Made by a program: the position numbers and the translations under genes. Under the pieces are notes generated by a model. The model was not told where the DNA came from. It was given only the letters and a program-made list of their open reading frames with translations, and did no database searches. From Patescibacteria group bacterium (GTDB lineage: Bacteria; Patescibacteriota; Minisyncoccia; Phycocordibacterales; PALSA-1337): 64,000 bases of DNA. This document shows, piece by piece, positions 5,784 through 64,000 of the stretch. Numbering within the stretch: the stretch's first letter is position 1; every line of letters begins with the position of its first letter. The stretch lies in contig JAGXAG010000004.1 in the NCBI GenBank assembly GCA_018971685.1, positions 2,416-66,415 of the forward strand, in the 5' to 3' direction.

Positions 5784-6004
5784 AGGATTCAATTTTGACT
5801 GTTGCGCATTCGGTGACGAATGTTAGTTGTGCGTTTCGGCAAATGCTACTCGTAAATGTTGGCATTTTCACAAAGCACAATAGCTCTCGGACATGCACGC
5901 CATTGTGCTTTGGAAAATGCATCAACATTTACTTCACAGCAGAATTGCCTCAACTTACAACTAACATTCGTCACCGAACTAAATAGGTAAACAAAACAAG
6001 CGAC

Positions 6005-9080
<3,076 letters not shown>

Positions 9081-42608: not shown

Positions 42609-43058
42609 CCTGACTTAACTGCAGTCGGGTAGCGCGCGATGTTCTCCCAGCCAGTAAGGAGAACCGAAAATTTGGACCTGCCGCACGCATAAAGAATCGT
42701 GCGGCAGGCAACCAACCCAACTTCTCGGAGGAAGTCCGCCAGCGAATGCGGACACAAAAATGCCGGAGAAGTTGTCGAAATTGTGGTCGGCACAGGAACT
42801 TTGTGGCCGTGTTTGGTTTATGGGCCTCGTTGCTGTGTCCGACCATGAGTCCGTAGAAAGGTCTCATCAAAGAGCCACTCTCTACATCGTCAGGATCCAA
42901 GACTGGATCCGGGTTGCCCTTGTTACAGGGCTTTTTTCTGGAAAGGAGCATGTCACCGCGCGCTCCGGATAATAAGCTACACCCATGCAAATAAACTGTC
43001 AAGGACTTATCCACAGTCAGTACACATGTCCGGCATGTGTAATTTGGGGCAGTAAAAA

Positions 43059-43697
43059 TCAGCTGAAACCGCCGATCTCGCGCCGAATGACCGCCAAAAA
43101 ATCTTTTTTGACATCTTCAAGCGGACGATTGGCGTCAATGATAACCGATCTTGACTGGATATAATTCGGAAATTCAAGCAGGGCCCTTCTAACCATTTGG
43201 TGAAATTCGATCGGGCGCGTGTCTATGTGATTGACACGATTCGTCGCTTTGCGGCGGCTAAGGCCTACTTCAGGATCGACATCAAGAACGACATAAAGGA
43301 GCGGCACTAAAACTAACCCCTTTCTGTATTCCCAGAATTTCGCTTCGAGAATACCGCGCGTTGCAATATTCGACCCGGCGTTTACTTGATAAGCCCACGA
43401 TGACGCGTCAGAACGGTCAGTCACCACACATATGCCGGCGTCAACCTTTGGCTTTACGACTTCTTTGACATGATCATAACGATCAACAAACATGAGGTGC
43501 AGTTCCGCCTCGGCGCCGGCCATGGGCGAGAACGGATGATTGAGCAGAACTCTGCGGATGACTTTGCCGTCCGGCGAACCGCCCGGTTCGCGTGTCGTAA
43601 AGACCAGCTCGCCGAAGATGTCAGGTAGCGTTTTGATCAGGGTTGATTTACCTGATCCTTCGCCGCCATCTACTGCTATGTATTTTGGTGTTTTCAT
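43059..43697 (-). CDS. tmk: thymidylate kinase
   Basis: P-loop IAVDGGEGSGKST, FTTREPGG, DRY-like VVTDRSDASSWAYQ and lid LDVDPEVGLSRR align block by block with E. coli Tmk. Confidence 0.8.
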   Translation of the reverse strand: MKTPKYIAVDGGEGSGKSTLIKTLPDIFGELVFTTREPGGSPDGKVIRRVLLNHPFSPMAGAEAELHLMFVDRYDHVKEVVKPKVDAGICVVTDRSDASSWAYQVNAGSNIATRGILEAKFWEYRKGLVLVPLLYVVLDVDPEVGLSRRKATNRVNHIDTRPIEFHQMVRRALLEFPNYIQSRSVIIDANRPLEDVKKDFLAVIRREIGGFS

Positions 43698-43753
43698 AAA
43701 TTCTTTAGTCCTTGATTATACTAACAAAAAGAGTATAAATAACAACCGGAACA

Positions 43754-44704
43754 ATGTATAATCGAACTATGAAAACACTACATCCAGACATTACTTACTG
43801 CAACCTTCTCCGGAATATTATCGAGAATGGTACTCACAAATCAGACCGCACCGGCACCGGAACCATTACAGTCTTTGGTACACAAATGCGATTTAATCTC
43901 GAAGAAAACTTCCCCCTCCTTACGACCAAACGGCTTGGTCCGCGTACTATTATCCGCGAACTGCTTTGGTTCATCGCCGGCGACACTAAATTGCGCACTT
44001 TGCTGGCCAATAAAGTGCACATTTGGGATGAGTGGCCGTTCAAACATTACTTGATCGCCAACAAATTGCCCATCCCAAAAGTTAACAGCCCGGAATGGAC
44101 TGTCCAGATGAAACAGTTTACGGATAAAATCTTGGGTGACGACAATTTCAACGAACAATACGGCGACTTGGGACCGGTATATGGCAAGCAATGGCGAACA
44201 TGGGGAACGCCGGATGGCCGTGTCATCGACCAACTAAAAGACGCGGTGGAAATGATCCGTAACAATCCGGATTCTCGCCGTATCATAGTGACGGCATGGA
44301 ATCCGTCCGACATCGACGAAATGGCTAAAGCCGGATTGCCGCCGTGTCATTGCCTGTTTCAATTCTTTGTCGCCGACGGCAAATTGTCTTGCCAACTGTA
44401 CCAGAGAAGCTGCGACACTTTTCTGGGAGTACCCTTCAACATCGCGTCATATTCATTGCTCACTTTGATGGTGGCGCATGTGACCGGACTTAAGCCCGGC
44501 GAATTCATTTGGACCGGCGGCGATACGCACATTTACCTGAATCATATGGATCAGGTCTATGAACAAATGTCTCGCACACCGAAACCGGCTCCAACGGTGA
44601 AAATCAAACGGCAGGTGCCAGAGTTGTGGGATTTCACCGTCGATGATTTCGAACTTGTTGGATATGATCCGCATCCGCCAATCTCTGCACCGATTGCGGT
44701 GTAG
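43754..44704 (+). CDS. thyA: thymidylate synthase ThyA
   Basis: …[62 protein letters not shown]… Likely start MKTLHPD (43769), directly after an extended -10 TGTATAAT, so the transcript would be leaderless. Confidence 0.9.
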
Positions 44705-44786
44705 TCACTAAGGTCTTTACGCAACGCGCCAACCATCCGGTTGGCGCGATTTTATTACGCCTAGGTCCGACCTTGGTAAAACTCCG

Positions 44787-45209
44787 CTATTTACCCGTAG
44801 AACCGAAACCGTTACCGCCCCTGTCGGATCCGGACAATTCTTCGACTTCTTCGAAGTCGGCCGTTTCGATCTTTTGTATCAGAAGCTGGGCTATTTTATG
44901 CCCTTTTTCAAATTTAAATACTGTGTCAGACAAATTCATAAGGCCAACTAGAATTTCACCCCTGTAACCTGAATCTATTACACCACCAAACACTTTGAGT
45001 CCAAACTTTTGAGAAAGCCCGCTTTTATCCCATATAAGGCCAACATAACCATAAGGTATCTCAATTGCGATACCCGTGGATACACTTTTGCGCTCATGTG
45101 GTTTTATTTCAAGATCTTGCGTACAATAAAGATCAAAACCGGCATCGCTTGTATGGGCATAAGACGGGTTTTTAGAATCAGCACTTAATTTTTTAAATTT
45201 TAATTTCAT
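44787..45209 (-). CDS. dut: dUTP diphosphatase
   Basis: …AHTSDAGFDLYCTQDLEIKP…GLIWDKSGLSQKFGLKVFGGVIDSGYRGEI…. Confidence 0.85.
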   Translation of the reverse strand: MKLKFKKLSADSKNPSYAHTSDAGFDLYCTQDLEIKPHERKSVSTGIAIEIPYGYVGLIWDKSGLSQKFGLKVFGGVIDSGYRGEILVGLMNLSDTVFKFEKGHKIAQLLIQKIETADFEEVEELSGSDRGGNGFGSTGK

Positions 45210-45784
45210 TTATTTACCAATTTTGTTATGGTAATTTCTTCTTCTTTTGGATCTACAAAATGTTGCCAGTCTCTACCGTGGTACCGACCGGTATTTTTAT
45301 AATCTTTAATCGGCTTACTGGATAGCTCGGAAAATAATATCTGTCCTATGCGCATTTTCGGACGCAAAATTATAGGTATCTGATTCATATTGCACAATTC
45401 AAATGTAATATTTAAAAAATGCCCCGGATTAATTATACCTGCGGTATTATGAATAACCAACCCTATTCTAGCCAAACTGCTTTTGCCTGAAAGTTGAATC
45501 AAGTATTTATCTGACCCGAAATAATCAATAGAAGTGCCAAGTATATTCACCCCCGGATGTAAAATAAATACACCTTCTTCTTCGGAAATTATAATCTCTT
45601 TTGGCTCCGGATATATCTTTTTGACAGGATCGATCGCGGGGGTTGACTGGGTATTGTGGACAATAAATTTATTGCCCAGAAGTATATCATAACTCGCCGG
45701 TTGTAAGCGGGTCTCGTCAAAACCTTCGATTAAAATCGAACCATCTTCGATAGCTTTTCTTATGTCTCTGTCCGATAAATACAT
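45206..45784 (-). CDS. dcd: dCTP deaminase
   Basis: MYLSDRDIRKAIEDGSILIEGFDETRLQPASYDILLG…, a trimeric dUTPase-fold deaminase. Overlaps dut by 4 nt. Confidence 0.85.
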   Translation of the reverse strand: MYLSDRDIRKAIEDGSILIEGFDETRLQPASYDILLGNKFIVHNTQSTPAIDPVKKIYPEPKEIIISEEEGVFILHPGVNILGTSIDYFGSDKYLIQLSGKSSLARIGLVIHNTAGIINPGHFLNITFELCNMNQIPIILRPKMRIGQILFSELSSKPIKDYKNTGRYHGRDWQHFVDPKEEEITITKLVNK

Positions 45785-45844
45785 GGATATAACTTATGGT
45801 TACTTTTATAGTATAATACAGATTAAAGACAATTGTAACAATAA

Positions 45845-46375
45845 ATGCTCAAAACCTTCATCGTCGCCGCTCTGTCCGCCGACGGATATATTGCCAGAGA
45901 CGAACGCCATCCGGCGTTTTGGACGAGCAAAGAGGACAAGAAGCGGTTCGTGAAATTGACCAGACGGGCGGGCGTGGTCGTTATGGGCGCCAATACATTC
46001 ACGACCATTGCAAGGCCGTTAAAAGAGCGCGTCAATATAGTCTATTCCCGCTCCAGAAGCTTCGAGGGCGCCGAGATGACCCAAGACTCCCCTTTAGACC
46101 TCCTCGCCAAGCTGGAAGCGCGCGGTTTCAAAGAGGCCGCTATCTGCGGCGGCTCCCATATTTACACCATGTTCATGAAAGCCGATGTCGTCGACCGCCT
46201 GTACCTGACCGTCGAGCCCATCATATTCGGCGCCGGCATCCGCCTATTCAACGAACCGCTTGATAATTATCACCTCGAATTATTGTCCTTGAATAAAGCC
46301 GGAAACGGCGCCATTCTCCTCGAATACAAAGTCGACTATTCCGGTTCGCCGAAAAGTGAACTCGAGGTCAAATAA
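45845..46375 (+). CDS. dihydrofolate reductase-like protein (RibD-C/DHFR family)
   Basis: FIVAALSADGYIARDERHPAFWTSKEDKKRFVKLTRRAGVVVMGANTFTTIARPLKERVNIVYSRS follows the DHFR nucleotide-binding pattern. Co-located with thyA. Confidence 0.65.
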   Translation: MLKTFIVAALSADGYIARDERHPAFWTSKEDKKRFVKLTRRAGVVVMGANTFTTIARPLKERVNIVYSRSRSFEGAEMTQDSPLDLLAKLEARGFKEAAICGGSHIYTMFMKADVVDRLYLTVEPIIFGAGIRLFNEPLDNYHLELLSLNKAGNGAILLEYKVDYSGSPKSELEVK

Positions 46376-46537
46376 AAGTGAGGTGTCGCATTTTCAAAGG
46401 AGGAAACTGTCCGAGCGCGGTTGAAATTTCCGGACAAAACACGAACCGTCATGTCCTCGTGAGTGTTTTGTCCTGAAATTTCCCGCGCGAGTTTTTCCGA
46501 CTTTGAAAATACGACACCTCACTTTTATTTGACCTCA
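46365..46537. repeat. 173-nt nested quasi-palindrome (outer 36-nt arms with 1 mismatch, inner 20-nt arms) spanning the convergent stops of the DHFR-like gene and rplK
   Basis: Outer arms gaggtcaaataaaagtgaggtgtcgcattttcaaag (46365-46400) and its reverse complement (46502-46537). Inner arms gaaatttccggacaaaacac / gtgttttgtcctgaaatttcc. Both flanking proteins end …EVK*, encoded by the arm sequence gaggtcaaataa. Confidence 0.7.
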
Positions 46538-46947
46538 ACCCCCATCTGCCGCGCAGTCCCAGCAATAATCTTCATCGCCGCCTCGACATCGCCGGCATTC
46601 AAGTCCGGCATTTTCTTTTCCGCTATTTCCTTCAATTGCGCTTTCGTGATCGTGCCGATCTTTTCCGTATTCGGCTTGCCCGAGCCCTTTTCCTTATTTA
46701 AGGCTTTCAAAATCAGGCTCGAAGCCGGCGGCGTCTTCAGGACGAAATCATAAGTCCTGTCTTCGTAAACCGAGATGACCACCGGGATCATGTCTCCCAT
46801 CATATTCTTGGTGGCGTCGTTGAACTTCTTCGTGAAATCGCCGATATTCACGCCCGCTTGGCCCAATGTCGGACCCAACGGCGGCGCCGGGGTAGCTTTG
46901 CCGGCGGGAGCGATCACCTTTACCTTTTTGATTACCTTTTTGGCCAT
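46525..46947 (-). CDS. rplK: 50S ribosomal protein L11
   Basis: [48 protein letters not shown]…. Confidence 0.9.
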
Positions 46948-46986
46948 ATTGTTTGGTATGCTAGCATAAGTTGATTAATAAACAAG

Positions 46987-47043
46987 TTTACAGTTTACAA
47001 TGATAAATCATCAATTCGCTAATAACTTATCATTGTAAACTGA
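46987..47043. repeat. REP-like palindromic element, copy ii (gtttacagtttacaatgataa … ttatcattgtaaactg)
   Basis: Lies between the nusG stop and the rplK start. Shares tcgctaataacttatcattgtaaactg…cctcac with copy i. Confidence 0.55.
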
Positions 47044-47052
47044 AAATTATCC

Positions 47053-47598
47053 TCACACTTTTTTCACTTGCAAGAAATCCAATTCCACCGGCGTTTCCCT
47101 GCCAAACATCGACACTAGTACTTTAATCTTGCCCCTCTGCGTATCAACTTCCGAGACCTTGCCTTCGAAATCTTTGAACGGTCCGTCGATAACCTTGATG
47201 AGATCGCCGACAGACACATCTATCGAGTGTTCCGCGCCGGCTTTTGACATTCGCGCAAAGAGCGTCTCGACTTCGTTTTTGTCCAATGGCACCGGGAACA
47301 CGCCCGACCCCACGAAACCGGTCACTCGCGGAGTATTCCTGACCACATACCACGAATCATCGGTCACGATCATTTCCACCAAGACATATCCGGGGTATAT
47401 TTTCTCCTCTTCCTCGACTCGTTTGCCGGCCTTGATCTTTATCTTTTTCTCATTCGGCACGATGACCGCGAATATTTTGTCCTCCATGCCGAGAGACTCT
47501 ATGCGTTGTTTCAGATTGCGCGCCACGGCATTTTCATATCCCGCATATGTGTGGATCGCATACCACGCGCGCTCTCCGGTTGATTGTTGTTTTGACAT
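47053..47598 (-). CDS. nusG: transcription termination/antitermination factor NusG
   Basis: WYAIHTYAGYENAVARNLKQRIESLGMEDKI… (NGN) and C-terminal KOW GDLIKVIDGPFKDFEGKVSEVD. Confidence 0.9.
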   Translation of the reverse strand: MSKQQSTGERAWYAIHTYAGYENAVARNLKQRIESLGMEDKIFAVIVPNEKKIKIKAGKRVEEEEKIYPGYVLVEMIVTDDSWYVVRNTPRVTGFVGSGVFPVPLDKNEVETLFARMSKAGAEHSIDVSVGDLIKVIDGPFKDFEGKVSEVDTQRGKIKVLVSMFGRETPVELDFLQVKKV

Positions 47599-47686
47599 CG
47601 TAAGTAAAGAGTAAATTATAAATTATAAACAAATCATAATATTTAAAATTTACAAATTACGAATTGTTTATAATTTAAAATAACAG

Positions 47687-47863
47687 CGTCAGCAGTTTCG
47701 AAAAAACAAAATCCGAGACGCCCAATAATATCGCCGTCGCGATGGAAACCAGTATTACAAGCACGGTAAAACGGATCGTCAACTGCCTGGACGGCCAATT
47801 AACATGCTTCATTTCCGCTTGCGTCTCTTTCACATATTCCGTGATTTTCATTTTCTTTATCTT
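47687..47863 (-). CDS. secE: preprotein translocase subunit SecE (58 aa, below ORF-track cutoff)
   Basis: Translation of the reverse complement: MKITEYVKETQAEMKHVNWPSRQLTIRFTVLVILVSIATAILLGVSDFVFSKLLTLLF. Canonical position upstream of nusG. Confidence 0.65.
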
Positions 47864-47904
47864 TGGCTTTGCCTTGAATTTAACGCCGACTGAATTTACC
47901 CATT

Positions 47905-47930
47905 TTTATTAAAAAACCCCTGCCGGGGAC
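47905..47930 (-). terminator. terminator (cccctgccgggg + U-run on the minus strand) after gene 48003..48866
   Basis: Read from the sequence. Confidence 0.45.
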
Positions 47931-48002
47931 TTGCAGTTATAAAGGTATCATATTCAGTTTGCCAAAGTCAATGGCCTGGTCTGATCGCGGTATAAATACC
48001 GA

Positions 48003-48866
48003 TCAGTCAATCTCGTAAGTGATCGTCACATTGCTTGTCACTTTCTGTTCGCCCGTCGGCACTTCAGGCACGGGCGCGGCCGATGTTTCCATCGCTGCCG
48101 CTTTTATGCCGCCGCCAAGGCCGTAGATCGGCATCGGACCGCTTGATTCATAGAAACCGGTGATGCGCCCCAGCGACACGCCCAATTGTTTCGCCAGCGT
48201 AGCCGCCTTGTCTTTGGCATCGCTTATCGCTTTCGCGCGAGCTTCAGCTTTCACCGTTTCCGGCTGGTCAACCGAGAAAGCCAGACTGTCAACATTTTGC
48301 ACACCCAGCGATCCGATCGAAGTGAATATCGAACCCGCTTTGCTCAAATCGCGCACTTTGACTTGGATTGTCTGGCTCACTTCATAGCCCGTCAAGACTG
48401 ATTTGCCGGGCGGGCAATATCTTATTGCGGTTACTGGCACAGATACGGTAGCAACACCGGCTCCCGAAACCATCGGCGGTACCGGAGCGGAAGCGTTTTC
48501 CGTTGTGCAGACCGCATTTTGGTATTCATAGTGGGGGTTGATGTTGTATGACAATGTCGAAATATCTTTGTCGGAAACGCCGGCATCGCGTACGGCTTTC
48601 AAGGCATCGTTTATTTTCGCAGTCGCGGCGGCTTGTGCGTCCGCTACGGTTTTGGCCGTTTCCGAAACTGTGAACGAGAATGTCGCGACATCCGGCACCG
48701 AAAGCGCATCGCCGGTGCCATTTATCGTTATCGTGTTCACGGCCGGCACATCTTTGCCGACGAAACCGATCGACTTTAATTCTTTTACAGACATCACTGC
48801 CAGGAATATGACAAGCAATATTCCCACAAACATGCCCGTTTTCCACACTTTTTCGTGAGTATTCAT
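48003..48866 (-). CDS. SIMPL-domain (DUF541, Omp28-like) periplasmic protein
   Basis: Signal/TM anchor, then TITINGTGDALSVPDVATFSFTVSE…LTGYEVSQTIQVKVRDLSKAGSIFTSIGSLGVQNVDSLAFSVDQPETVKAEARAKAISDAKDKA, typical of SIMPL. Confidence 0.7.
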   Translation of the reverse strand: MNTHEKVWKTGMFVGILLVIFLAVMSVKELKSIGFVGKDVPAVNTITINGTGDALSVPDVATFSFTVSETAKTVADAQAAATAKINDALKAVRDAGVSDKDISTLSYNINPHYEYQNAVCTTENASAPVPPMVSGAGVATVSVPVTAIRYCPPGKSVLTGYEVSQTIQVKVRDLSKAGSIFTSIGSLGVQNVDSLAFSVDQPETVKAEARAKAISDAKDKAATLAKQLGVSLGRITGFYESSGPMPIYGLGGGIKAAAMETSAAPVPEVPTGEQKVTSNVTITYEID

Positions 48867-48935
48867 TGTTTTTATATTTTTAAATAGTGTTTAGTAATAA
48901 ATACAAATATACGAATGATATTTCTATTAAAAATA

Positions 48936-49793
48936 TCACAAATCCAATAAATTTTCAAAAAGCGCCAACACCGTCATCGGTCCCACTCCTCCGGGCACCG
49001 GCGTGATCGCCGCAATAACATCTTTCACCGCGTCAAAGTCAACATCTCCCACTAACTTTCCATCTGCGGTTTTCGAAATACCGACATCGATGATCACTTG
49101 GCCTCTTCTCACATGCTCTTTGCCTACCAATCCCGGCTTGCCCGCAGCGGAAATGATAATATCCGCGGTTTTCGTCTCGTCCGCAAGATCGGCCGTTTTG
49201 CTGTGGCATATCGTCACCGTTGCGCCTTCATTCAGGCACATCGCCGCCACCGGCTTGCCGACCAGCATCGATCGCCCTATTACGACCACTTTCTTGCCGA
49301 AGAGTTTCATCCCATAATGCGCCATGATCTCGCTCACGCCGCGCGCAGTCGCTGGAAATATCGCGTCTTTTTCGCCGCCAAGCCATCTTCTTATGTTTGC
49401 GGCCGTCAATCCGTCCGCGTCTTTCTTGGGGTCGATTGCGTCGATAACCGCATCTTTATCTATATGTGCCGGCAGGGGCAGCTGTACGATTATTCCTTGA
49501 ATGTCATGCTCGGCATTACATTCGCGAACAATGCCGATCAGATCGGTCTCAGAAATATTTTCATCCGCTTGCATATGCTTCACCGCCGCCCCGATCCTTT
49601 CCGCAAACGCCTTTTTGGCACGGACATACGAGTCGGAATCGGCGCGCGCGCCGACTTGAATAATGGCCAAGGTCGGAACATTTCCGGAAACACTCGAAAA
49701 TGCCTTCACTTTCTCTACAAGTTGCGGCATGAACGCCTCGCGCGCCTTCCGTCCGTCCAAGATGATGGATTGCATTTTAACAACAAACAACAT
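48936..49793 (-). CDS. folD: bifunctional 5,10-methylene-THF dehydrogenase / methenyl-THF cyclohydrolase
   Basis: …AIIQVGARADSDSYVRAKKAF…DIQGIIVQLPLP…DPKKDADGL…VVVIGRSMLVGKPVAAM…TPVPGGVGPMT. Confidence 0.9.
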   Translation of the reverse strand: MLFVVKMQSIILDGRKAREAFMPQLVEKVKAFSSVSGNVPTLAIIQVGARADSDSYVRAKKAFAERIGAAVKHMQADENISETDLIGIVRECNAEHDIQGIIVQLPLPAHIDKDAVIDAIDPKKDADGLTAANIRRWLGGEKDAIFPATARGVSEIMAHYGMKLFGKKVVVIGRSMLVGKPVAAMCLNEGATVTICHSKTADLADETKTADIIISAAGKPGLVGKEHVRRGQVIIDVGISKTADGKLVGDVDFDAVKDVIAAITPVPGGVGPMTVLALFENLLDL

Positions 49794-53589: not shown

Positions 53590-53844
53590 TTGGTGGAGAG
53601 TATGGAAGCGGTAGCTACAGCCAGCTTCCTACAATCCCAAGACAAAGCTCCGTATATCCGCCTTGCCATACGAAAAATTGATACCTTGCGCGTCCTCCTC
53701 ATGGTCCTCTGGGAAACGAAGTCACTAGATGACAAGAAATACATCGCTCTTTCTACAAAGATAGACGAAGTTGGGAGGATGCTCGGCGGATGGATTGGCA
53801 AGCTCTCTACGCAAAACTCTCCCGTAAAGACGGGAGAGAAATGA
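53590..53844 (+). CDS. four-helix-bundle protein (23S rRNA intervening-sequence protein family, TIGR02436-like), possibly truncated/degenerate
   Basis: …APYIRLAIRKIDTLRVLLMVLWETKSLDDKKYIALSTKIDEVGRMLGGWIGKL matches the C-terminal two helices of the family. The in-frame upstream sequence (RFDLQCPIYKVIADF from a TTG at about 53527) matches helix 1. The conserved middle segment (…SQIRRAAxSIPxNIAEG…) is missing. Confidence 0.45.
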   Translation: MVESMEAVATASFLQSQDKAPYIRLAIRKIDTLRVLLMVLWETKSLDDKKYIALSTKIDEVGRMLGGWIGKLSTQNSPVKTGEK

Positions 53845-53846
53845 AG

Positions 53847-53990
53847 TGAGTTGCGGAAGACAAACCAGTCGTTGGTGTTGTCGAAGTTCTCGACCCAATT
53901 GAGGTTCGCCTTGCGCTTCGAGTCATTCCACCAGACATAGCACGCGTTGCGGTTGCCCTCGAAGGAATTGTACAGGATGCCATCCGTGCC
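53847..53990 (-). pseudogene. partial duplicate (about 80% identity) of the 3' end of gene 54337..54960
   Basis: 53847-53990 aligns with 54337-54480 (ttgcggaagacaaaccagtcg(t/c)tggtg…ccaccagacatagcacgcg…ccctcgaagga…). No intact ORF. Confidence 0.4.
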
Positions 53991-54336
53991 ACTGCCCCTC
54001 GAATACTCTCAAGGCTGTATCGCATTCGGCATCTATAATGCCCTAGCATCTCGTACCAAGTAGCTTCATTTTTGTGAAGTGTCTGCATACACCACTCTAC
54101 CTGAAACCGTAATCGCAGGTACTCTCGATGTATGGATACTGGCTTCGGTAGCAGGAAACCGTAATCTCCCGCGTATTCACCTATCGCCACATCGAATTTT
54201 ATCACATATACAAAAGTTTAACCCCCGCACACATCGCTGTATGCAGGGGCTGAATGTTTTAGGCTCGTCATTCTTATCCAAAGTTTCGGACAAAGGGCAA
54301 AAGTTCCAAAAGGACCGAGTGCCAGAGTCCCGAGAG

Positions 54337-54960
54337 CTACTTGCGGAAGACAAACCAGTCGCTGGTGAGGCCGAAGCCCTCGACCCAATCGAGGCTCGCC
54401 CTGCGCTTCGAGGCACGCCACCAGACATAGCACGCGTCGCGGCGGCCCTCGAAGGAACAGTCCGTCGTAGCCACAGCATACATCGGATTTTGTCCGAGTT
54501 GTTCGGGGAGCCTCGGGTGCTGTTCACCGATAGCGAAGGCTTCGCGCGGATGAGTCCGCTTGAGGCCTTTAGTTTCCGCCCATGCAATAGCCTTGTCCCA
54601 GTTGCCGTCGCCGTTCGGGAAGTTCAGGAGGATGAGTTTCTCCTTGACTTTGCCCTTACCGACAGGAGCATATTGGTCCCCCACCTTGCGGACATTGTAA
54701 TCGTTGGGGGTATTGGGACCAGCGGCGTTCACAGCGGCCTGCCACTCGCGGTCCTGTTTCACTTCGACTTCAAGGATATGGACGCGAGCACCTTTCGGCG
54801 CTTCGATGTCCGTGAGTTCAACCTTGAGCGAGTCGAGGAAACGGCCGAATGAGCCATCGTCGAGGGCTTGCTGGAAGCGAGCGCGGCCTACTTGCTTCTC
54901 ATTGGCGATTTTGCGGCCGCATTCCATCTGACTGACAGTTACGGGCATGTATTTGCTCAT
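54337..54960 (-). CDS. hypothetical protein
   Basis: 207 aa, GC-rich coding, no recognised motif. Its 3' end has a decayed copy 350 nt downstream. Confidence 0.45.
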   Translation of the reverse strand: MSKYMPVTVSQMECGRKIANEKQVGRARFQQALDDGSFGRFLDSLKVELTDIEAPKGARVHILEVEVKQDREWQAAVNAAGPNTPNDYNVRKVGDQYAPVGKGKVKEKLILLNFPNGDGNWDKAIAWAETKGLKRTHPREAFAIGEQHPRLPEQLGQNPMYAVATTDCSFEGRRDACYVWWRASKRRASLDWVEGFGLTSDWFVFRK

Positions 54961-57319: not shown

Positions 57320-58633
57320 TCAAGGAACCTTGACCTCTTCCTTGAGAAGCCGCCGGACTTCAGCAACAGGATCGGCTGCACCGAGGACTTGCCTGCCCAT
57401 GACAAGAAACGAAGCGCCCGCCTCGAGAGCACCCTGTGGTGTTCCGATTCGCTCCTGGTCCCCTTTGTCGGCACCTGGCGAACGGACTCCCGGGATAACC
57501 AACTCGAATTTAGGATAATCGGCCTTGAGAGCCGCCGCTTCTTGGGGCGAACAGACGAGACCGTGGGCACCAGCGCGATTGGCGATAGCGGCGAGTTTCT
57601 TCACCTGATCCAGGGGCAGCCGGCTATAGACTTCCTCGCAGTTGGCTTGATCCATCGAGGTCAGAACCGTCACCGCAAGAACCTTGGTCGGCGTCCCTTC
57701 AAAGGCTTTAACCACGGCCTTGATCATCGCTTCCCCGCCGGAGGCATGGACCGTCACAGCCCAGGGCGGATTGATGGCGAAACGCTTGGCGATATTCTCC
57801 AGGGTATTCGGAATGTCATGGCCTTTGAGGTCAACCATGACGCGTCCATAGACCTGCAAATCCGGCACCAGGTTGCGATAGCCTTCCCAGAAGAACAGGT
57901 CGTTCACCTTGAGAATACAACCAGTGGTGCGAAGCTGGTCGATGAGAGGCAACACATCCGACCAGCTCTTGCCGTCAAGAGCAACGATGATCGGATTCTT
58001 GGCTTCGACGTCCTTTTTGCAGCGTTCCATGATGCCGTGGCCGATGAGATACCGGCGAACATCGTGGAGCGTCATGCCGGACCAGACTTCGAGGTCGAGC
58101 TTCTCGTCGGAGAACTTTTTCCGCCATCCCTGCTGCCGGTCAACGAGGACGATGAGCGGACCGAGGTCCACTTCGGCCGAGAGGCACGTCCGAGCCGGGA
58201 TAATCTTCGAAGCGCCGTCTGTAACGACATCATCGATGATGACGAACGGCTCCTCACGGACCAGGCGGCCGATAGTGTTCGCTTTCGAGACGCGGCCTTC
58301 CTTGGCCTGTTCGCGAATTGTCGTGTAAGGCAGGCCCGTTTTGAGCGACAGCGGTCCCGCGAAACAGGAAACCGCATCAGGAACCTCGCCGAACCGTTTG
58401 ACCTTGAGGCGCAGAAGCGGAATCGTGTAGAGGTCCGCCAAGAGCTCAATAGCGTTCGGATCGTTGCGAGCATTACGGAGATTCATGTAGATATCCGTTG
58501 TGCCGCCACTCTTCAGGGGAAGACTGCGGTTATTGTCGTGCTTCACCAGTTCGGCATCGGATTCAACCAACTCCTTGATGACTTCTTCCTGCTCCCACGG
58601 AGCAAGCCAGTGTGAATTTCCAACTTTTTTCAT
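57320..58633 (-). CDS. bifunctional orotate phosphoribosyltransferase / orotidine-5'-phosphate decarboxylase (PyrE-PyrF fusion, UMP-synthase-like)
   Basis: N-terminal half has the PRTase signature VIIDDVVTDGASK and LKSGGTTDIYMN. C-terminal half has IIVALDGKSW (ODCase D-x-K), ILKVNDLFF, VMVDLKGHDIPNT, and VIPGVRSPGADKGDQ…GASFLVMGRQV. Confidence 0.8.
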   Translation of the reverse strand: MKKVGNSHWLAPWEQEEVIKELVESDAELVKHDNNRSLPLKSGGTTDIYMNLRNARNDPNAIELLADLYTIPLLRLKVKRFGEVPDAVSCFAGPLSLKTGLPYTTIREQAKEGRVSKANTIGRLVREEPFVIIDDVVTDGASKIIPARTCLSAEVDLGPLIVLVDRQQGWRKKFSDEKLDLEVWSGMTLHDVRRYLIGHGIMERCKKDVEAKNPIIVALDGKSWSDVLPLIDQLRTTGCILKVNDLFFWEGYRNLVPDLQVYGRVMVDLKGHDIPNTLENIAKRFAINPPWAVTVHASGGEAMIKAVVKAFEGTPTKVLAVTVLTSMDQANCEEVYSRLPLDQVKKLAAIANRAGAHGLVCSPQEAAALKADYPKFELVIPGVRSPGADKGDQERIGTPQGALEAGASFLVMGRQVLGAADPVAEVRRLLKEEVKVP

Positions 58634-58782
58634 AGCTTTTATTCCAGTTTTCCGTCATTTTGTTTTCAAACCTATCTGCCACCAGATTACAAGCATTTTG
58701 ACCAAAGTCAATGTTTTTGAAAATGACAACAAAAAAAGACTCGCACACCGAAGCATGCGAGCCGTTTGTAAGTAATTCTGAA

Positions 58783-59958
58783 TTAACCAACGAGTTTCCA
58801 CGGGAGCTCTGTGCCTCCCTTGAAAACCTGAACGGCTCCAACCTTGACTGGAACCTTGAGGGGCGTTCGCTCGATTGTCATCTGCTCCGAACTCACCCTC
58901 ATGCCATACGTGCCAAGGAAGTTTTCGGAAAGAAACGCGCCGAGATGTTCCAGGGCATTATCTTCATCAAAGGCTGTCGTGTACATCTCGACGGCTGTAG
59001 GTGCGGTGAAGATTCCTGCCGCGCAACCGTAGCAACGAGACTTCATCTGCTCATCGTGCGGTGCAGAATCAGTACCAGCACCAAAGCGCCGGTGCCCTCC
59101 AGTCACGTATTTGCGAACCCGCTGCCGATGCGATTCACGCTTCGGCACCGGTTTGCAGTAGTGACCGGCATTCATGCCGCCCCAAAACATGGCGTTACGG
59201 TTGATCATCAGGTGATGGGCAGTCACTGTCGCGAATAGCGTGGCATGCTCATCGCAACAGCCATACCCCGCTACAAAGTCCGCCGCACGACCATCAGTCA
59301 GGTGTTCGAAGACCACCGGCAGTCCCGGGAAGGACTTGAGGATGGGCTTGAGGTCGCGGTCAACGGAGACAATCTCTCGATCGAACTCGTCGACGTCTTC
59401 CTCGACCGCTTCGAAGTGTCCAAGGAGTGGGATTTTGTGTTTCTCCATCGCTTCGAACACTGGATAGCGACCAAGAAGATCTTTCACGCCATGCGCCGAG
59501 CCGGTAGTCCCGCCCTGACCTTTTTGATTGGCCATGTAGAGCTTTACTGCTCGCCAGACGCCTTCCTGAAATCCCCGCACGACTTCGTCAGGACTGGTAC
59601 TGTCGGTCAGGTAACACGTCATGCAGGGCTCAAACCGAGAGTAATATCCGGGAGTGCCTTCAGCGTGAGCTTGATACACCACCGTTATACGTTCTCTGTA
59701 GGCCTTCGCTTTCTCGATCGAAGAGATCGGGTCTGCGAGGTTAGGCATGATGATCGCTCCAGTAGCACGCTGTTTGAGTGTACACGGAAGGACTGTTTTC
59801 ATCATCTCACTGTCTCGGATGTGAAGGTGGCGATCAAACCACCGAGGGATTGTAATTCTATTCAGCATTTTGTTCCTTTCTATCGGTGAGGGACTCGTCA
59901 AGAATCGTGGTGATAGTGGCCGTGCATAGATCCTTGTCATCCTTGACATAATGATCAA
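58783..59958 (-). CDS. pyrC: dihydroorotase (class II, E. coli PyrC-like)
   Basis: ITIPRWFDRHLHIRDSEMMKTVLPCTLKQRATGAIIMPNLADPISSIEKAKAYRERI aligns almost residue by residue with E. coli PyrC ([20 protein letters not shown]…[24 protein letters not shown]). Also …GTDSAPH… Likely start MLNRITIP (about 59868). Confidence 0.85.
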   Translation of the reverse strand: MIIMSRMTRIYARPLSPRFLTSPSPIERNKMLNRITIPRWFDRHLHIRDSEMMKTVLPCTLKQRATGAIIMPNLADPISSIEKAKAYRERITVVYQAHAEGTPGYYSRFEPCMTCYLTDSTSPDEVVRGFQEGVWRAVKLYMANQKGQGGTTGSAHGVKDLLGRYPVFEAMEKHKIPLLGHFEAVEEDVDEFDREIVSVDRDLKPILKSFPGLPVVFEHLTDGRAADFVAGYGCCDEHATLFATVTAHHLMINRNAMFWGGMNAGHYCKPVPKRESHRQRVRKYVTGGHRRFGAGTDSAPHDEQMKSRCYGCAAGIFTAPTAVEMYTTAFDEDNALEHLGAFLSENFLGTYGMRVSSEQMTIERTPLKVPVKVGAVQVFKGGTELPWKLVG

Positions 59959-60124
59959 GCCGATGCCGGTTCATCTTTTCAGAGTAACGATCCTCCGTTT
60001 CCCACTCATCTGTACTGGTTACTTTGTTTATAGCCTGCCAGATTTTTTCGGCAAGTTGCCGATAGTCCGTCTTTGTCACAGTTTGCATATTCCTTCCTTT
60101 CTGACGAATGATGTTGGCGCCCAT
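59858..60124 (-). CDS. hypothetical small acidic protein between pyrD and pyrC
   Basis: 88-aa ORF in an operon-internal position. No motif. Confidence 0.3.
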   Translation of the reverse strand: MGANIIRQKGRNMQTVTKTDYRQLAEKIWQAINKVTSTDEWETEDRYSEKMNRHRLDHYVKDDKDLCTATITTILDESLTDRKEQNAE

Positions 60125-60954
60125 GGAGTTCTCAAATGAATCGCGCCGAAGCTCACGGCTTTCGCTCCAAGCCTGCGTACACGATCCATGTCTTCAAATT
60201 CCATGACGCTTGGACCGATCACCGGGAGCGGTCCTTGTTTGGCAAGAGCTTCGACCGCCGCCCAGTTGTGTTTCTGTGCCGGTTTGCCAGACACTCCACC
60301 GCCCCCGCCGCCGACTCGTTGCTCGAGCTTCCACAAAGGTGTCCGCTCGCCGTTGATGAAGACCGTCTTCCACGGCACACTGTTCAAAGATATCGCTTCA
60401 GCAACACCTTCGAGGCCGTGCGCTATAGACAAGTAGTCTTGATCTACTGAAACTTTGACAATAACTGGGTGACGCGAAACGCGTTTGACCGCTTTTACGC
60501 TATTCACCACGGCCTCAGCCGTCTGCATCGCATGACCGGTGTTCGGACACGAAGGGTTGACCTCCATACCGACCAGATCAAAGCGATTGAGCTTCTCGGT
60601 CATTTCCACCAACTCCTTCTCTTCGCCGAAGATCGATCCGACGAGAGGAATCTTGTGGAAGTCGAGTGTCGGACCGATGTCCCTGCACCACCATTCGACA
60701 CCCGGGTTGGTCAGACCGACTTTATTGACCGAACCACCGGGAATGAGGCGTACGCAGGTCCACGGTTTCCACATCCGCAGATTGCCCGGACGCGGATTGC
60801 GCGTCAGGGTCTTGATGACAACAGTAAAGAGTTTAGGTTTGATAAGCCCGAACCAGACTAACGGCCGTTCCCACGGCCACCCCTTGCCATCGAAGGCAAG
60901 CGAACCGCTGGCGACCATGTATTTGAAAGCATGGCCGTTTGAAAGAGTGATCAT
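60076..60954 (-). CDS. pyrD: dihydroorotate dehydrogenase (class 1-like, Cys in active-site loop)
   Basis: NKVGLTNPG, EVNPSCPNT (catalytic Cys, as in class 1A), and GGGGGVSGKP (FMN phosphate-binding). Confidence 0.8.
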   Translation of the reverse strand: MITLSNGHAFKYMVASGSLAFDGKGWPWERPLVWFGLIKPKLFTVVIKTLTRNPRPGNLRMWKPWTCVRLIPGGSVNKVGLTNPGVEWWCRDIGPTLDFHKIPLVGSIFGEEKELVEMTEKLNRFDLVGMEVNPSCPNTGHAMQTAEAVVNSVKAVKRVSRHPVIVKVSVDQDYLSIAHGLEGVAEAISLNSVPWKTVFINGERTPLWKLEQRVGGGGGGVSGKPAQKHNWAAVEALAKQGPLPVIGPSVMEFEDMDRVRRLGAKAVSFGAIHLRTPWAPTSFVRKEGICKL

Positions 60955-61265
60955 AAAAATCCTCCGTTTGTTGGTTTATTTCAACGTCCAATTACACACT
61001 TAAAGCTGTGTGACGAGCTTATCGATAACATCGACTCTGTGGCCCACACTAACCGAAAAGACCTCCAAAATCAACGTTCCGCCGCCAATCTCCGAAAATA
61101 GCGCCCCCTTCTTGCCACCTGTTCGCCCCAAGGTGCCCTTTTCTGCCCCAAGTAAGGCATTTCCACGACTTTGACCCTAATCAGAGCCGTGTCGCGAGAT
61201 TTCGAACAATTCAATCACGACCACAAATTGACTTCAAAAACGCGCTGGCGTATGTTCGTCCGTGC

Positions 61266-61625
61266 ATGAAAAATCGATTCATAAAAGCGAATCCGAAAGA
61301 CATCGAGCATTCGAGCTTCGCCGGCTACCTGCAAGCTTCATACAAAGACCTCGTCGCTTGCTTCGGCGAACCGAATGACCGGACCAAAGACGGTCCGTGG
61401 CAATCTTATGATTGGAAGGTCCGCGCCGAATGGACATGGAAGAGCACGGCTCGGAGAGATCGGGCCGTCATAACCATCTACGATTACAAGGAAACCCAGC
61501 CTGTCGATGAGGTAACGCTGTGGCATGTCGGACTGAAGGGATCAGCAAAGCGGCTCAGGGAGTTTATGACCAAGAACAGAGCCAACCTGATCCGTCTGCC
61601 AAAAAGTTTAGTGAATTTAGGTTAG
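61266..61625 (+). CDS. hypothetical protein
   Basis: 119 aa, no motif. Confidence 0.3.
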   Translation: MKNRFIKANPKDIEHSSFAGYLQASYKDLVACFGEPNDRTKDGPWQSYDWKVRAEWTWKSTARRDRAVITIYDYKETQPVDEVTLWHVGLKGSAKRLREFMTKNRANLIRLPKSLVNLG

Positions 61626-61668
61626 TTTGAAGCAAAATTCACTAAAAAATAGCAAAAAGACGTGAAAA

Positions 61669-62187
61669 TTACTTTCTCTTTGGTCTTTCCCCTTTTATCA
61701 GTCTATCGAACGCCTCGAGATTACCCATAGCATCATGGACCGGATTGTGATCATGCTTCGTGATACGCAAATGCTTCCAGGACGACGAGTCCATGAAATC
61801 GCCAATGAGACCAGCATAGAAATCGCCGATTCTCCTTGCGGAATATCCGAACGGATTCCGGCCGAGAGTCCTCCAGAAGCTATCATTGATCCACTGCCAA
61901 TCAAACGCCGGATTATCACTGACGAATTTCGGCCGCTCTTCTCCGCACACCTCAAACAGCCACTTCTCGAATTTCTCGAACACTTCCTTTTCATTAAATA
62001 CTTTTCCGGTATAGACACGAGTAGTCGGATTCTCGGCCGACCTATGACCTTCGATAATAACACCGTGGAATGTCGCCCGCGACGGGTACGCGGCCACGCC
62101 AAATTCGGTGAGCTTCCCCAAGCTCGGACATTTGCCATTGGCTTCGCAGTCGATGAAGATTAGGTTTTTGATGTCGGAATTGTTCAT
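61669..62187 (-). CDS. DEDDh 3'-5' exonuclease (DnaQ/RNase T-like)
   Basis: Exo I IFIDCEANG (D-x-E). Exo III HNPVHDAMGN (H-x4-D-A). Confidence 0.6.
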   Translation of the reverse strand: MNNSDIKNLIFIDCEANGKCPSLGKLTEFGVAAYPSRATFHGVIIEGHRSAENPTTRVYTGKVFNEKEVFEKFEKWLFEVCGEERPKFVSDNPAFDWQWINDSFWRTLGRNPFGYSARRIGDFYAGLIGDFMDSSSWKHLRITKHDHNPVHDAMGNLEAFDRLIKGERPKRK

Positions 62188-62276
62188 ATTGATACAGTCT
62201 AGCTAAAATAATATTCTTTAGAAACAAAACTGCCCTCCTTCCTGGGCAGCATTGTTGCGTTGTATTCAGGACTGCA

Positions 62277-62615
62277 TTACCAAGGTAGATTCACTGCCAT
62301 TGGAACTGCATTCGGAAACGCATCGCCTATTAGCGGACGTAGAGTATTTGCAAGGTAACGCTCTACCCCATTACGGTATGTTGCTAGAACTGGAGCCCAG
62401 GTCACGTACAGATTGTTATATCTTGTGATTGCCGGGTCATTTCTATGGGCTGAGAGACGATCTTTAATGATGCCTTGTCCTACTCTGACGACTTGTCCGT
62501 TGGCCTGCCAGATAATGTAGACTCCTTCCATGCTGTCGAAATGGGAATGTCCCAAATCTACCCATAAAAGTGAACCCCATACATTACCAAGACATTTCTG
62601 CCAGGAAAGTTGCAT
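62277..62615 (-). CDS. GIY-YIG domain protein (short)
   Basis: GVYIIWQANGQVVRVGQGIIKDRLSAHRN matches the GIY-x10-YIG…R…H pattern. Confidence 0.45.
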   Translation of the reverse strand: MQLSWQKCLGNVWGSLLWVDLGHSHFDSMEGVYIIWQANGQVVRVGQGIIKDRLSAHRNDPAITRYNNLYVTWAPVLATYRNGVERYLANTLRPLIGDAFPNAVPMAVNLPW

Positions 62616-62698
62616 GACTATGTGATACCAGAGTAATAACTATTTACTTTTTGGTGTCGCCGTAGCCGGAGAGTCTATTTTTTATTCGCGTAATTACA

Positions 62699-62953
62699 AT
62701 GAGTATGAAAACAATCCACGAGACCGACTTCTATCGCACCTCCGACCTCGCTTGCGCGGCGGCTATTTCCCTGTTCGTGCGGCTCGATAACATCGACAAA
62801 ACCGACAGACGCCGGGCATTTTTCATATTCGAACGTAATAGCGAATTGGATGGACTGCTTGAGTCATTCTGGAAAGGCACGCTCACGGTCGAGCCGCGTG
62901 CTTATTTTGATCAGATCAAGGCGCTGAAGACACGACTGTACGAAATCGACTAG
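62699..62953 (+). CDS. DUF5659-like small protein
   Basis: …FYRTSDLACAAAISLFVRLDNIDKTDRRRAFFIFERNSELDGLLESFWKGTL… follows the DUF5659 pattern (T.DL.LAA.L…G..L…….R..F.FE.S.EL…..YW.G) as recalled. Not verified. Confidence 0.45.
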   Translation: MSMKTIHETDFYRTSDLACAAAISLFVRLDNIDKTDRRRAFFIFERNSELDGLLESFWKGTLTVEPRAYFDQIKALKTRLYEID

Positions 62954-63063
62954 CATGGCCAAGAAATCTACCAAGCCAAATACGGTCCCCGCACCATCGT
63001 CTAAAGAAGAGCGGATCTTTATCGATCGCTTGGTGGAGATTTTGATCATGCAGGTCGAGGCTA

Positions 63064-63615
63064 ATGAAAATAACAATGAACATCAACGGGTACTTGAAAC
63101 TGTATAGATATGACTTCCTCATGAGGCTGAAAGGCCTCACTGATCAGGAAATGCGCCTGTATCTGACGCTTGTTGCGCTGACCAAATGGGATCGCAAAAA
63201 CAAGGAAACATTCGGCTTGGTACACATATCAGTCAGGAAATTGAAAGAGAAATATCTGAAAAAGTGGTCAATCGGCAAAATCGGCACGATCAGGAAATCC
63301 CTGGTTACTAAGGAATTTTTGACACCAGCCGAAGGAGGTGGATATCTTGTTGAAAACTACTGGATCTATCAGGCAACCATGCCGCGGGCTGAACTGGCTT
63401 TTCAGTGTATCGAACAAGGAATTCAACCCACCGAACAGAATGTTCGGGAGATTGAACAGCGCCCAATTCTGGCATTGGAGGCGGGCAAGCAAAATCTGTT
63501 GCAAAGATTCACCAATACGTTTCCGCCTGTTCAGCCCACTGAACAGAATCGTGAGGCAGAGAATGAAAAGAAAGAAAAAGAAGATAAGAGAATCGAACCG
63601 TCCCAATCCATATAG
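63064..63615 (+). CDS. phage replisome-organizer-like (N-terminal wHTH) protein with QPTEQN repeats
   Basis: GYLKLYRYDFLMRLKGLTDQEMRLYLTLVALTKWDRKNKETFG resembles the Phage_rep_org_N pattern (W.KLY…L…A….NG). Two QPTEQN(V)RE repeats near the C-terminus. Confidence 0.4.
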   Translation: MKITMNINGYLKLYRYDFLMRLKGLTDQEMRLYLTLVALTKWDRKNKETFGLVHISVRKLKEKYLKKWSIGKIGTIRKSLVTKEFLTPAEGGGYLVENYWIYQATMPRAELAFQCIEQGIQPTEQNVREIEQRPILALEAGKQNLLQRFTNTFPPVQPTEQNREAENEKKEKEDKRIEPSQSI

Positions 63616-63761
63616 GATCGAATGAAGGCGAACCGGACGGAAAATCGCAACCCATCGCAATCCACATAACCGTACATCACCACCAACACATCTCAAAATA
63701 GCAGACCATCACAGTCCAGATAGATGGACAAAGATGACCAAAAACCCCCAAATCGCAATCC

Positions 63762-64000
63762 ATGAAATATTCGCCAGAACAGATAAAAATTTTTGAAGAC
63801 ACCATTTACGACATCGTATGTCGTGACCCTGGAGTAAGCACGCGATCGCTGTGCTACGAGCTTGAACAACAGCATATAAAGCTCAGCCGAGCCTATGCGA
63901 CCAAGCTTATGTGGCAGGCATGCAGGAAGCTCACAGATAAGAAAAAAGAGGCTACGGAACGACGAGTTGAATTTGAAGCCTGGAGAGAAAAGCTTAGAGA
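63762..64000 (+). CDS. partial ORF running off the window end (HTH-like: MKYSPEQIKIFEDTIYDIVCRDPGVSTRSLCYELEQ…)
   Basis: Open frame with no stop before the window end. Confidence 0.25.
   Translation, partial: MKYSPEQIKIFEDTIYDIVCRDPGVSTRSLCYELEQQHIKLSRAYATKLMWQACRKLTDKKKEATERRVEFEAWREKLR

Follow-up and report, generated by a model that had tools for sequence, protein, structure and literature searches.

Does the locus examined here carry a genuine fusion of pyrE and pyrF, and where would a bacterium have obtained a gene laid out like a eukaryotic UMP synthase (UMPS)? The locus lies in a stretch of 64,000 nt (hereafter the window) of contig JAGXAG010000004.1, from an assembly filed as a Patescibacteria group bacterium (GCA_018971685.1). 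A first-pass annotation of this DNA had described one open reading frame (ORF) of 437 aa with a phosphoribosyltransferase (PRTase) domain at its N-terminus and an orotidine 5'-monophosphate (OMP) decarboxylase (ODC) domain at its C-terminus, in the order of the eukaryotic enzyme, and had noted that pyrE and pyrF are as a rule separate in bacteria. We accept the latter point, and the description itself is borne out by the uninterrupted frame, by profile matches, and by predicted folds. The gene, here called pyrEF, very probably encodes a bifunctional UMP synthase native to the Parcubacteria, with orotate phosphoribosyltransferase (OPRT) joined to ODC in a single chain. Its parts are as follows.

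57320..58633, minus strand: pyrEF, fused OPRT–ODC (UMP synthase-like); one ORF of 437 aa with an ATG start and no internal stops
58019..58633, minus strand: N-terminal divergent OPRT (PyrE) domain, aa 1–205, assigned by PDB profile search, hhalign, and Foldseek
58280..58321, minus strand: predicted flexible catalytic loop of OPRT, aa 105–118 (TIREQAKEGRVSKA), with R107 and K111 corresponding to E. coli R99 and K103
58205..58246, minus strand: predicted phosphoribosyl pyrophosphate (PRPP)-binding motif, aa 130–143 (FVIIDDVVTDGASK), with D134, D135, T138, and G140 corresponding to E. coli D124, D125, T128, and G130
57992..58048, minus strand: domain junction, aa 196–214 (LIGHGIMERCKKDVEAKNP), short, conserved, and predicted to be ordered
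57338..58003, minus strand: C-terminal ODC (PyrF) TIM-barrel domain, aa 211–432, assigned by PF00215, TIGR01740, NF001273, and PDB matches
57815..57832, minus strand: predicted catalytic DxKxxD of ODC (D268, K270, D273), with partners D220 and K242 upstream

All of the PRTase and ODC motifs listed by the first-pass annotation are found in the 437-aa protein: EPFVIIDDVVTDGASK at residues 128–143, DGKSW at 220–224, KVNDL at 242–246, and DLKGHDIPNT at 268–277, and likewise PGVRSPG and GASFLVMGRQ. The identical protein is encoded on seven contigs, from two metagenome-assembled genomes (MAGs) at NCBI (GCA_028865255.1 and GCA_028870795.1) and two SRA runs, which together represent at least four samples; at least 24 more contigs carry a version that is 97% identical. 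In a word-indexed search covering 5.8 billion proteins, at least 120 clusters of full-length homologues (about 430–447 aa, 58%–97% identity) were retrieved from Patescibacteria, Paceibacterota, and Minisyncoccia. A scan for loci, covering one genome per GTDB species and using a closer alignment (A4) and two peptide patterns with up to 80 pattern matches, gave at least 55 loci, which is a lower bound from a biased sample. Among the matches listed, a single ORF spans both halves in 51 of the 51 species-representative loci that carry both. The names attached to the fusion loci are Taylor-, Falkow-, Buchanan-, Doudna-, Jorgensen-, Staskawicz-, Moran-, Yanofsky-, and Kaiserbacteria, together with Parcubacteria, Paceibacterota, and Minisyncoccia; the named groups that bear the fusion belong to the Parcubacteria group of Patescibacteria. 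A few loci carry the unconfirmed labels Planctomycetota or Chitinivibrionales, or the automatically assigned "uncultured Gammaproteobacteria" or "Saccharibacteria." Compared with the 97% identical relative (locus L001), dN/dS is 0.038 in the OPRT half and 0.029 in the ODC half, values that are meaningful for this pair only, as dS is saturated past the closest relative. Both halves are under strong purifying selection.

Just N-terminal of the junction between the halves, GMTLHDVRRYL (aa 186–196) corresponds in the profile alignment to the last helix of E. coli PyrE; it would thus be the native final helix of the OPRT domain, and the stand-alone relatives of about 200 aa described below terminate directly after the equivalent helix. 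Within the junction, L196, G200, M202, R204, C205, E210, N213, and P214 are invariant or at least 90% conserved among 51 fused sequences, and indels are absent from this stretch among the closer homologues in the same alignment. An AlphaFold2 model of the whole protein, built on that alignment, has a mean predicted local distance difference test score (pLDDT) of 90.2 and a predicted template modelling score of 0.87. The junction itself has a pLDDT of 93–96 and is thus predicted to be ordered, not a floppy linker. Stretches of low pLDDT coincide with known mobile loops, namely the OPRT catalytic loop (aa 111–120) and the phosphate-gripper region of ODC; over aa 105–118 the pLDDT is 68, which is compatible with a mobile loop.

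By sequence and by model, the C-half is unambiguously a bacterial-type OMP decarboxylase. PF00215 matches aa 214–428 with 147 bits (cutoff 27, E = 1e-42) and TIGR01740 (pyrF) scores 135.2 bits (cutoff 92.3), while the bacterial PyrF equivalog NF001273 (PRK00230) falls slightly under its cutoff (191.4 bits versus 193). The nearest PDB sequences are PyrF proteins of the E. coli, Klebsiella, Vibrio, Coxiella, and Bacillus types (E = 1e-40 to 1e-26, 30%–39% identity). Archaeal ODC enzymes rank next, at about 1e-5, and the best 60 PDB matches include no ODC chain of a UMPS. Residues D220, K242, D268, K270, and D273 align with Klebsiella PyrF motifs (dlkfhdipnt, ald, lkv); the Asp/Lys network of ODC we take to be Asp20, Lys42, Asp70, Lys72, and Asp75 in M. 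thermautotrophicus numbering. These catalytic residues are at least 90% conserved in the 51 fused sequences, with K242 invariant. In a Foldseek comparison with the PDB, the TIM barrel of the model matches 8cso, 1eix, 3uwq, and 1dbt with TM-scores normalised to target length (TMt) of 0.79–0.86 and E-values down to 4.6e-18.

The N-half is harder to see with standard models. A check with PF00156 and PF00215 had been proposed for the two domains; the PF00215 half of that expectation holds, and PF00156 stays below threshold on the N-half (11.5 bits, cutoff 26.3). The NCBIfam pyrE models are likewise under their cutoffs (TIGR00336, 32.8 versus 106.8 bits, E = 5.6e-8; NF010382, 39.2 versus 208 bits, E = 4.8e-10). 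Since the N-half is missed by PF00156 and by the pyrE models, the architecture required independent support. As a single sequence searched against the PDB, the N-half finds the OPRT domains of Leishmania UMPS (3qw4, E = 2.4e-10) and human UMPS (2wns), and also A. pernix OPRT. A profile of its family finds 18 distinct OPRT structures (E = 5e-31 to 6.5e-8) ahead of any other PRTase, the first non-OPRT enzyme being an adenine PRTase at 1e-4. Aligned with hhalign to E. coli PyrE (a sequence 100% identical to 1oro), the family gives a probability of 98%, and K26, R99, K103, D124, D125, T128, G130, and R156 of the E. coli enzyme map to K41, R107, K111, D134, D135, T138, G140, and R166, respectively. 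All eight are invariant or at least 90% conserved among the 51 fused homologues. In the loop, R107 is invariant and K111 is present in at least 90% of members; at the orotate/OMP site, R166 is invariant and K41 is at least 90% conserved in the fused family. The hydrophobic stretch, the DD, and the x-T-x-G of the PRPP-binding motif are all present (FVIIDDVVTDGAS). The folds agree: among the best 50 Foldseek matches of the N-half, the PRTase folds listed are human OPRT (2wns, TMt 0.76, E = 1.7e-11) and Streptococcus pyogenes OPRT (2aee, TMt 0.78–0.79). On profile, alignment, and model evidence, then, the N-half is a divergent OPRT domain whose predicted catalytic residues are intact.

If so, the protein would catalyse the final two reactions on the way to UMP. 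The OPRT domain would transfer ribose 5-phosphate from PRPP to orotate, yielding OMP and pyrophosphate, with the DDVVTDGAS motif holding PRPP, a mobile loop with R107 and K111 closing on the active site, and K41 and R166 at the orotate/OMP site. The ODC barrel would convert OMP to UMP, cofactor-free, via the D220/K242/D268/K270/D273 charge network. Stand-alone OPRT and ODC enzymes are both obligate homodimers, for which reason the fusion too is expected, by analogy, to act probably as a dimer. Joining the two domains would fix their expression at 1:1 in genomes with little regulatory capacity, and would place OMP production beside OMP consumption, an arrangement that may favour transfer between the sites. 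Both catalytic activities, dimer formation, and channelling are what we infer for this protein.

Two distant fused homologues, P0143 and P0278 (P0144 cluster), keep the OPRT–ODC architecture with degenerate catalytic motifs. The OPRT catalytic loop and DD motif are degenerate in both (the loop is deleted in P0143), and the ODC motifs are degenerate in P0278; LVDGDVLNG and VTDIIENG replace IIDDVITDG, and DLNISHTPEV replaces DLKGHDIPNT. These proteins may be pseudoenzymes or repurposed paralogues.

The relatives of the N-half suggest where it came from. An exhaustive HMMER search with the N-half alone, against 1.84 billion representative proteins, gave 323 proteins at E ≤ 1e-3, and the closest matches are fused proteins mixed with stand-alone proteins of 194–217 aa (39%–48% identity). 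Two stand-alone relatives come with an organism name, and both are from Parcubacteria: P0134, annotated as Paceibacterota, and L050, a 211-aa gene in a Sungbacteria genome that is 54% identical to the N-half and has no adjacent pyrF. The stand-alone OPRT-like proteins of about 200 aa (L050, P0134, P0125–P0141) are 39%–54% identical to the N-half and share with it a WLxPxE N-terminus and a C-terminal GMTLxDVR helix; unlike the fused protein, they have no ODC domain, and several have lost the lysine equivalent to E. coli K26 (K41 here). A neighbour-joining (NJ) tree of OPRT domains places fused and stand-alone members in one clade with 87% support (100 bootstraps), with canonical PyrE, reverse-order fusions, and plant UMPS outside it. 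The order inside the clade is poorly resolved and does not give the number of fusion or fission events, so that we claim neither a single fusion event nor fission for the nested stand-alone members. The simplest reading of these comparisons is that a lineage-specific stand-alone pyrE was joined to a bacterial pyrF within the Patescibacteria.

That pyrE and pyrF have fused repeatedly and independently is a textbook example. The OPRT–ODC order is found in plants and metazoa, and the reverse order in some cyanobacteria, kinetoplastids, oomycetes, and diatoms (PMC2705460). The protein described here resembles eukaryotic UMPS in being a single chain, OPRT first and ODC second, for the last two steps of UMP synthesis, a correspondence of domain order that the first-pass annotation had pointed out and that stands. 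It also resembles it in having an OPRT half of the same short type (TMt 0.76 to 2wns). With the UMPS of the plant Cryptomeria (P0217), the OPRT halves align at 28% identity, whereas the ODC halves yield no alignment, the C-half here being PyrF-type. Two further differences are that its OPRT half joins stand-alone bacterial proteins in the NJ tree and that its junction is short, conserved, and ordered. Enzymes of the ODC–OPRT type (NF004034/PRK05500; Leishmania UMPS, 3qw4) also unite both activities, include some bacterial cases, and supply, in the Leishmania OPRT domain, the best PDB sequence match of the N-half; P0153, a reverse-order protein from metagenomic data, has about 31% identity to it in each of the two halves of our protein. 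They differ in their opposite domain order (PMC2705460), and our protein scores only 22.5 bits with NF004034 against a cutoff of 656. With the stand-alone E. coli enzymes (1oro, 1eix), it shares the catalytic residues of both, and its C-half is 35%–39% identical to gammaproteobacterial PyrF; unlike stand-alone bacterial PyrE and PyrF, it holds both in one chain, and its OPRT half shares no more than about 23% identity with E. coli PyrE, is without Y72/K73, and stays under the Pfam and NCBIfam thresholds. Given the unalignable ODC half, the grouping of the OPRT half with stand-alone bacterial proteins, and the short ordered junction, the simplest reading of the sequences is that the fusion arose independently of the eukaryotic OPRT–ODC enzymes, and of the reverse-order ODC–OPRT enzymes as well, and converged on the eukaryotic order.

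The surroundings of the gene are those of a bacterial chromosome. The window is 100% identical to a 70.9-kb contig of MAG GCA_028865255.1 over an overlap of 16.7 kb, and its nearest species representative is Candidatus Taylorbacteria RIFCSPHIGHO2_12_FULL_45_16. GC content around pyrEF is 0.49–0.53, compared with 0.44–0.55 over the whole window. Genes in the window include those for 23S–5S rRNA, ribosomal proteins L10, L7/L12, and S6, FtsW, FtsK, RecA, EF-P, SSB, RecO, methionyl- and isoleucyl-tRNA synthetases, a class II synthetase, NusG, SecE, serine hydroxymethyltransferase (SHMT), Tmk, ThyA, Dcd, dihydrofolate reductase (DHFR), and FolD. The window is an ordinary chromosome segment of Ca. 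Taylorbacteria (Parcubacteria, Patescibacteria). Across the 51 loci, the fusion is flanked, as far as the two closest ORFs to either side, by mixed housekeeping genes (ParB, Mur ligases, penicillin-binding proteins, tRNA synthetases, MiaA), and among them there is no recurrent neighbour.

In the window, 3.6 kb suffices to encode steps 3–6 of de novo UMP synthesis, with pyrD, pyrC, and pyrEF on the same strand. The neighbouring features are listed here.

58783..59868, minus strand: pyrC, dihydroorotase, 361 aa from Met31 of a longer TTG ORF reaching 59958; TIGR00856 296 bits versus 293; gene call in L004
59858..60088, minus strand: 76-aa ORF between pyrD and pyrC, overlapping both by about 11–13 nt and called in all four assemblies (L004–L007)
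60076..60954, minus strand: pyrD-like class 1 dihydroorotate dehydrogenase, 292 aa, with an NPSCPNT motif; PF01180 64.6 bits versus 27
58738..58763, minus strand: strong terminator-like hairpin with an 11-bp stem and a T-run behind it, beginning 20 nt past the pyrC stop and upstream of pyrEF; kept in L001
57267..57290, minus strand: terminator-like hairpin about 30 nt after the pyrEF stop, from the terminator scan

PyrC has homologues in Patescibacteria at 66%–84% identity, covering 92% of the ORF. The pyrD-like protein is below the cutoffs of the NCBIfam equivalog models, and a homologue 63% identical to it lies beside pyrEF in locus L048. The 76-aa ORF has no Pfam match. Elsewhere such linkage is infrequent, with pyrD or pyrC within 4 kb of the fusion in about five of the 51 loci. 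The terminator scan found five sites where 5.4 were expected by chance, and the two intergenic hairpins are therefore listed as candidate terminators. Between pyrC and pyrEF, the spacer (58634–58782) holds the hairpin and then a promoter-like TTGACT...TGTAAT stretch, and is better conserved with L001 than the flanking coding DNA. This layout is reminiscent of the E. coli rph–pyrE attenuator, and the spacer may conceivably act as a UTP-sensitive attenuator; Rfam, searched with its gathering thresholds, gave no regulatory RNA around the pyr genes. A few kilobases from the pyr cluster, at 41319–49793, are further pyrimidine, dTMP, and folate genes (SHMT, thymidylate kinase, ThyA, dCTP deaminase, DHFR, and FolD).

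The closest relative, Ca. Taylorbacteria L001/L008 with a 97% identical pyrEF, has a different set of neighbours. Downstream of pyrEF and before the DsbA–VKOR genes it carries purC–purE, purB, and purH, where the window has a GDSL lipase, a methyltransferase, and an isochorismatase. Its pyrC is reduced to the 3' third, the C-terminal approximately 175 codons, with a stop codon before it (L001 9334–10000 and L008 3325–3849, compared with 58783–59310 of the window), and pyrD is absent at the locus. The comparison suggests recent turnover of genes around a pyrEF that was itself conserved.

Several other explanations have to be weighed. The default expectation in a bacterium is adjacent pyrE and pyrF, and one might suppose that here a frameshift from sequencing or assembly, or a lost stop codon, had joined them in one assembly. 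There is no positive evidence for this, and its probability is negligible: the same ORF is found, identical, in independent assemblies, 51 species share the single fused ORF, and the junction is free of indels, conserved, and ordered in the model. Together with the dN/dS values, these observations exclude an artefact, and we rejected it. Hardly more probable is horizontal gain from a eukaryote or another non-bacterial donor within a genomic island; the first-pass annotation had suggested, on the strength of the fusion, a non-bacterial or otherwise unusual donor lineage for the island. The domain order is indeed that of eukaryotic UMPS, the N-half, searched as a single sequence against the PDB, matches best the OPRT domains of UMPS from Leishmania and human, and pyrD has serine recombinases and a PIN gene upstream of it. 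A donor of this kind is contradicted, however, by the ODC half, which is nearest to E. coli, Klebsiella, Vibrio, and Bacillus PyrF and cannot be aligned with that of plant UMPS, by the 28% identity of the OPRT halves and the position of plant UMPS outside the family clade, and by the presence of the fusion in dozens of Parcubacteria species in unrelated housekeeping contexts. The island fares no better, since GC is flat across the region, core genes surround it, PyrEF, PyrC, and PyrD all have Patescibacterial homologues, and the close relative L001 has pyrEF at the equivalent site upstream of the DsbA–VKOR genes. We therefore rejected a eukaryotic donor on the bacterial-type C-half, the Parcubacteria-wide spread, and the flat GC. 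There is a mobile-looking segment upstream of pyrD (window 61000–64000 and L004 1–7400, mostly past the window end), with two large serine recombinases, a PIN-domain gene, a DUF5659 gene, and several small ORFs. It may have been the source of the island idea; the pyr genes themselves are lineage-typical.

The points that weigh against a bifunctional UMP synthase, or against its place in a complete pathway, are the following. The N-half escapes PF00156 and both NCBIfam pyrE models, and the E. coli Tyr72/Lys73 pyrophosphate contact is not kept (D86/A87 here), though the lysine of that pair is not universal, human OPRT having Thr at the position. A second, canonical pyrE may be present elsewhere in the genome. 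The NJ tree leaves the history inside the family clade poorly resolved. No carAB or pyrB was found in the 64-kb window, and the truncated pyrC of the closest relative means that de novo synthesis is not guaranteed across the clade. Two readings draw on these points. In one, the ODC half would be the sole enzyme and the N-half a non-catalytic PRTase-like module, regulatory or stabilising, that binds PRPP, orotate, or a nucleotide, much as PyrR and PurR reuse the PRTase fold, with a separate canonical PyrE encoded elsewhere. The low profile scores and the replaced Y72/K73 equivalents fit this, the degenerate motifs of P0143 and P0278 show that the scaffold can lose catalysis, and the PurR repressor is among the weak profile matches (E about 3e-4). 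We nevertheless consider it improbable, because the fused family shows little or no variation at the loop Arg and Lys, at the PRPP-motif DD, or at the Arg of the orotate site, OPRT structures lead other PRTases by more than four orders of magnitude in E-value, family members exist as stand-alone proteins without any ODC to regulate, and dN/dS is as low in the N-half as in the ODC half. The other reading keeps the bifunctional enzyme and changes its role: in much of the clade it would salvage orotate, turning orotate from a host or the environment into UMP with no complete de novo route behind it. Nucleotide biosynthesis is generally reported as lacking in Patescibacteria (PMC11809585, PMC12455944), L001/L008 keep pyrEF under strong purifying selection with a pyrC remnant and no adjacent pyrD, and pyrD or pyrC is seldom close to the fusion in the 51 loci. 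Against this, intact pyrC and pyrD stand directly upstream in the window, PyrC homologues are widespread in Patescibacteria, and absence from the flanks is not absence from the genome. As an account of much of the clade this role seems to us rather unlikely, if far from negligible; in genomes like that of L001 it is plausible, unless pyrC and pyrD are encoded elsewhere there.

Other features of the window lie apart from the pyr genes. A signature of a diversity-generating retroelement (DGR) occurs at 53602–54960, with a pair of 117-bp repeats (53851–53967 and 54341–54457) that are 87% identical. All mismatches are T in the first copy on the plus strand (A on the minus strand) and C, G, or A in the second, which is an adenine-specific template/variable pattern. 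The variable copy is at the 3' end of an ORF of 207 aa (54337..54960, minus strand) with no Pfam match, and a bAvd-like ORF of 80 aa (53602..53844, plus strand; PF22296 29 bits, below cutoff) directly adjoins the template copy; a reverse transcriptase was not found near these repeats. The isoleucyl-tRNA synthetase (37396–40932, minus strand; 1,178 aa) has a histidine-phosphatase domain (PF00300, His_Phos_1) inserted at aa 518–686 in its catalytic domain. In the rRNA region (5673–9071, minus strand), the 23S rRNA match has 3,057 nt against a model of 2,925 positions and may contain insertions; 5S rRNA follows it. No 16S rRNA or tRNA is present anywhere in the 64-kb window.

A bifunctional UMP synthase is in itself already known; what is described here would be a bacterial form that evolved independently and is conserved in much of the Parcubacteria. 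Our literature search found no paper linking UMP synthase or this fusion to the CPR (candidate phyla radiation) or Patescibacteria, although most subscription journals were outside its scope, so that this is weak evidence of novelty. A bacterial radiation with the "eukaryotic" order, a bacterial-type ODC, and a lineage-specific OPRT would make a clean example of convergence, and cautions that domain order alone is no sign of eukaryotic origin. The consequences for annotation are more immediate. Source databases name the fused homologues only "orotidine-5'-phosphate decarboxylase," and two of the 120 homologues listed have a precomputed PF00156 match. Because the N-half goes undetected by PF00156 and by the pyrE models of NCBIfam, the names given mention just the OMP decarboxylase and pyrE can look absent; the N-half presumably escapes other thresholded annotation models as well. 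We suggest tentatively, as a possibility we hold to be somewhat less than even, that the fused enzyme is the sole OPRT in a large part of the Parcubacteria, hidden from the Pfam and NCBIfam pyrE models, and that lineages without pyrC and pyrD, such as the 97% identical relative, keep it for host-fed salvage of orotate to UMP. If it is indeed the sole OPRT, the "missing pyrE" or incomplete pyrimidine pathway often reported for CPR genomes would be partly an annotation artefact. The main practical value of the finding thus lies in correcting annotation where pyrE is possibly hidden in these genomes, and metabolic reconstructions of Patescibacteria may undercount their capacity for pyrimidine biosynthesis or orotate salvage.

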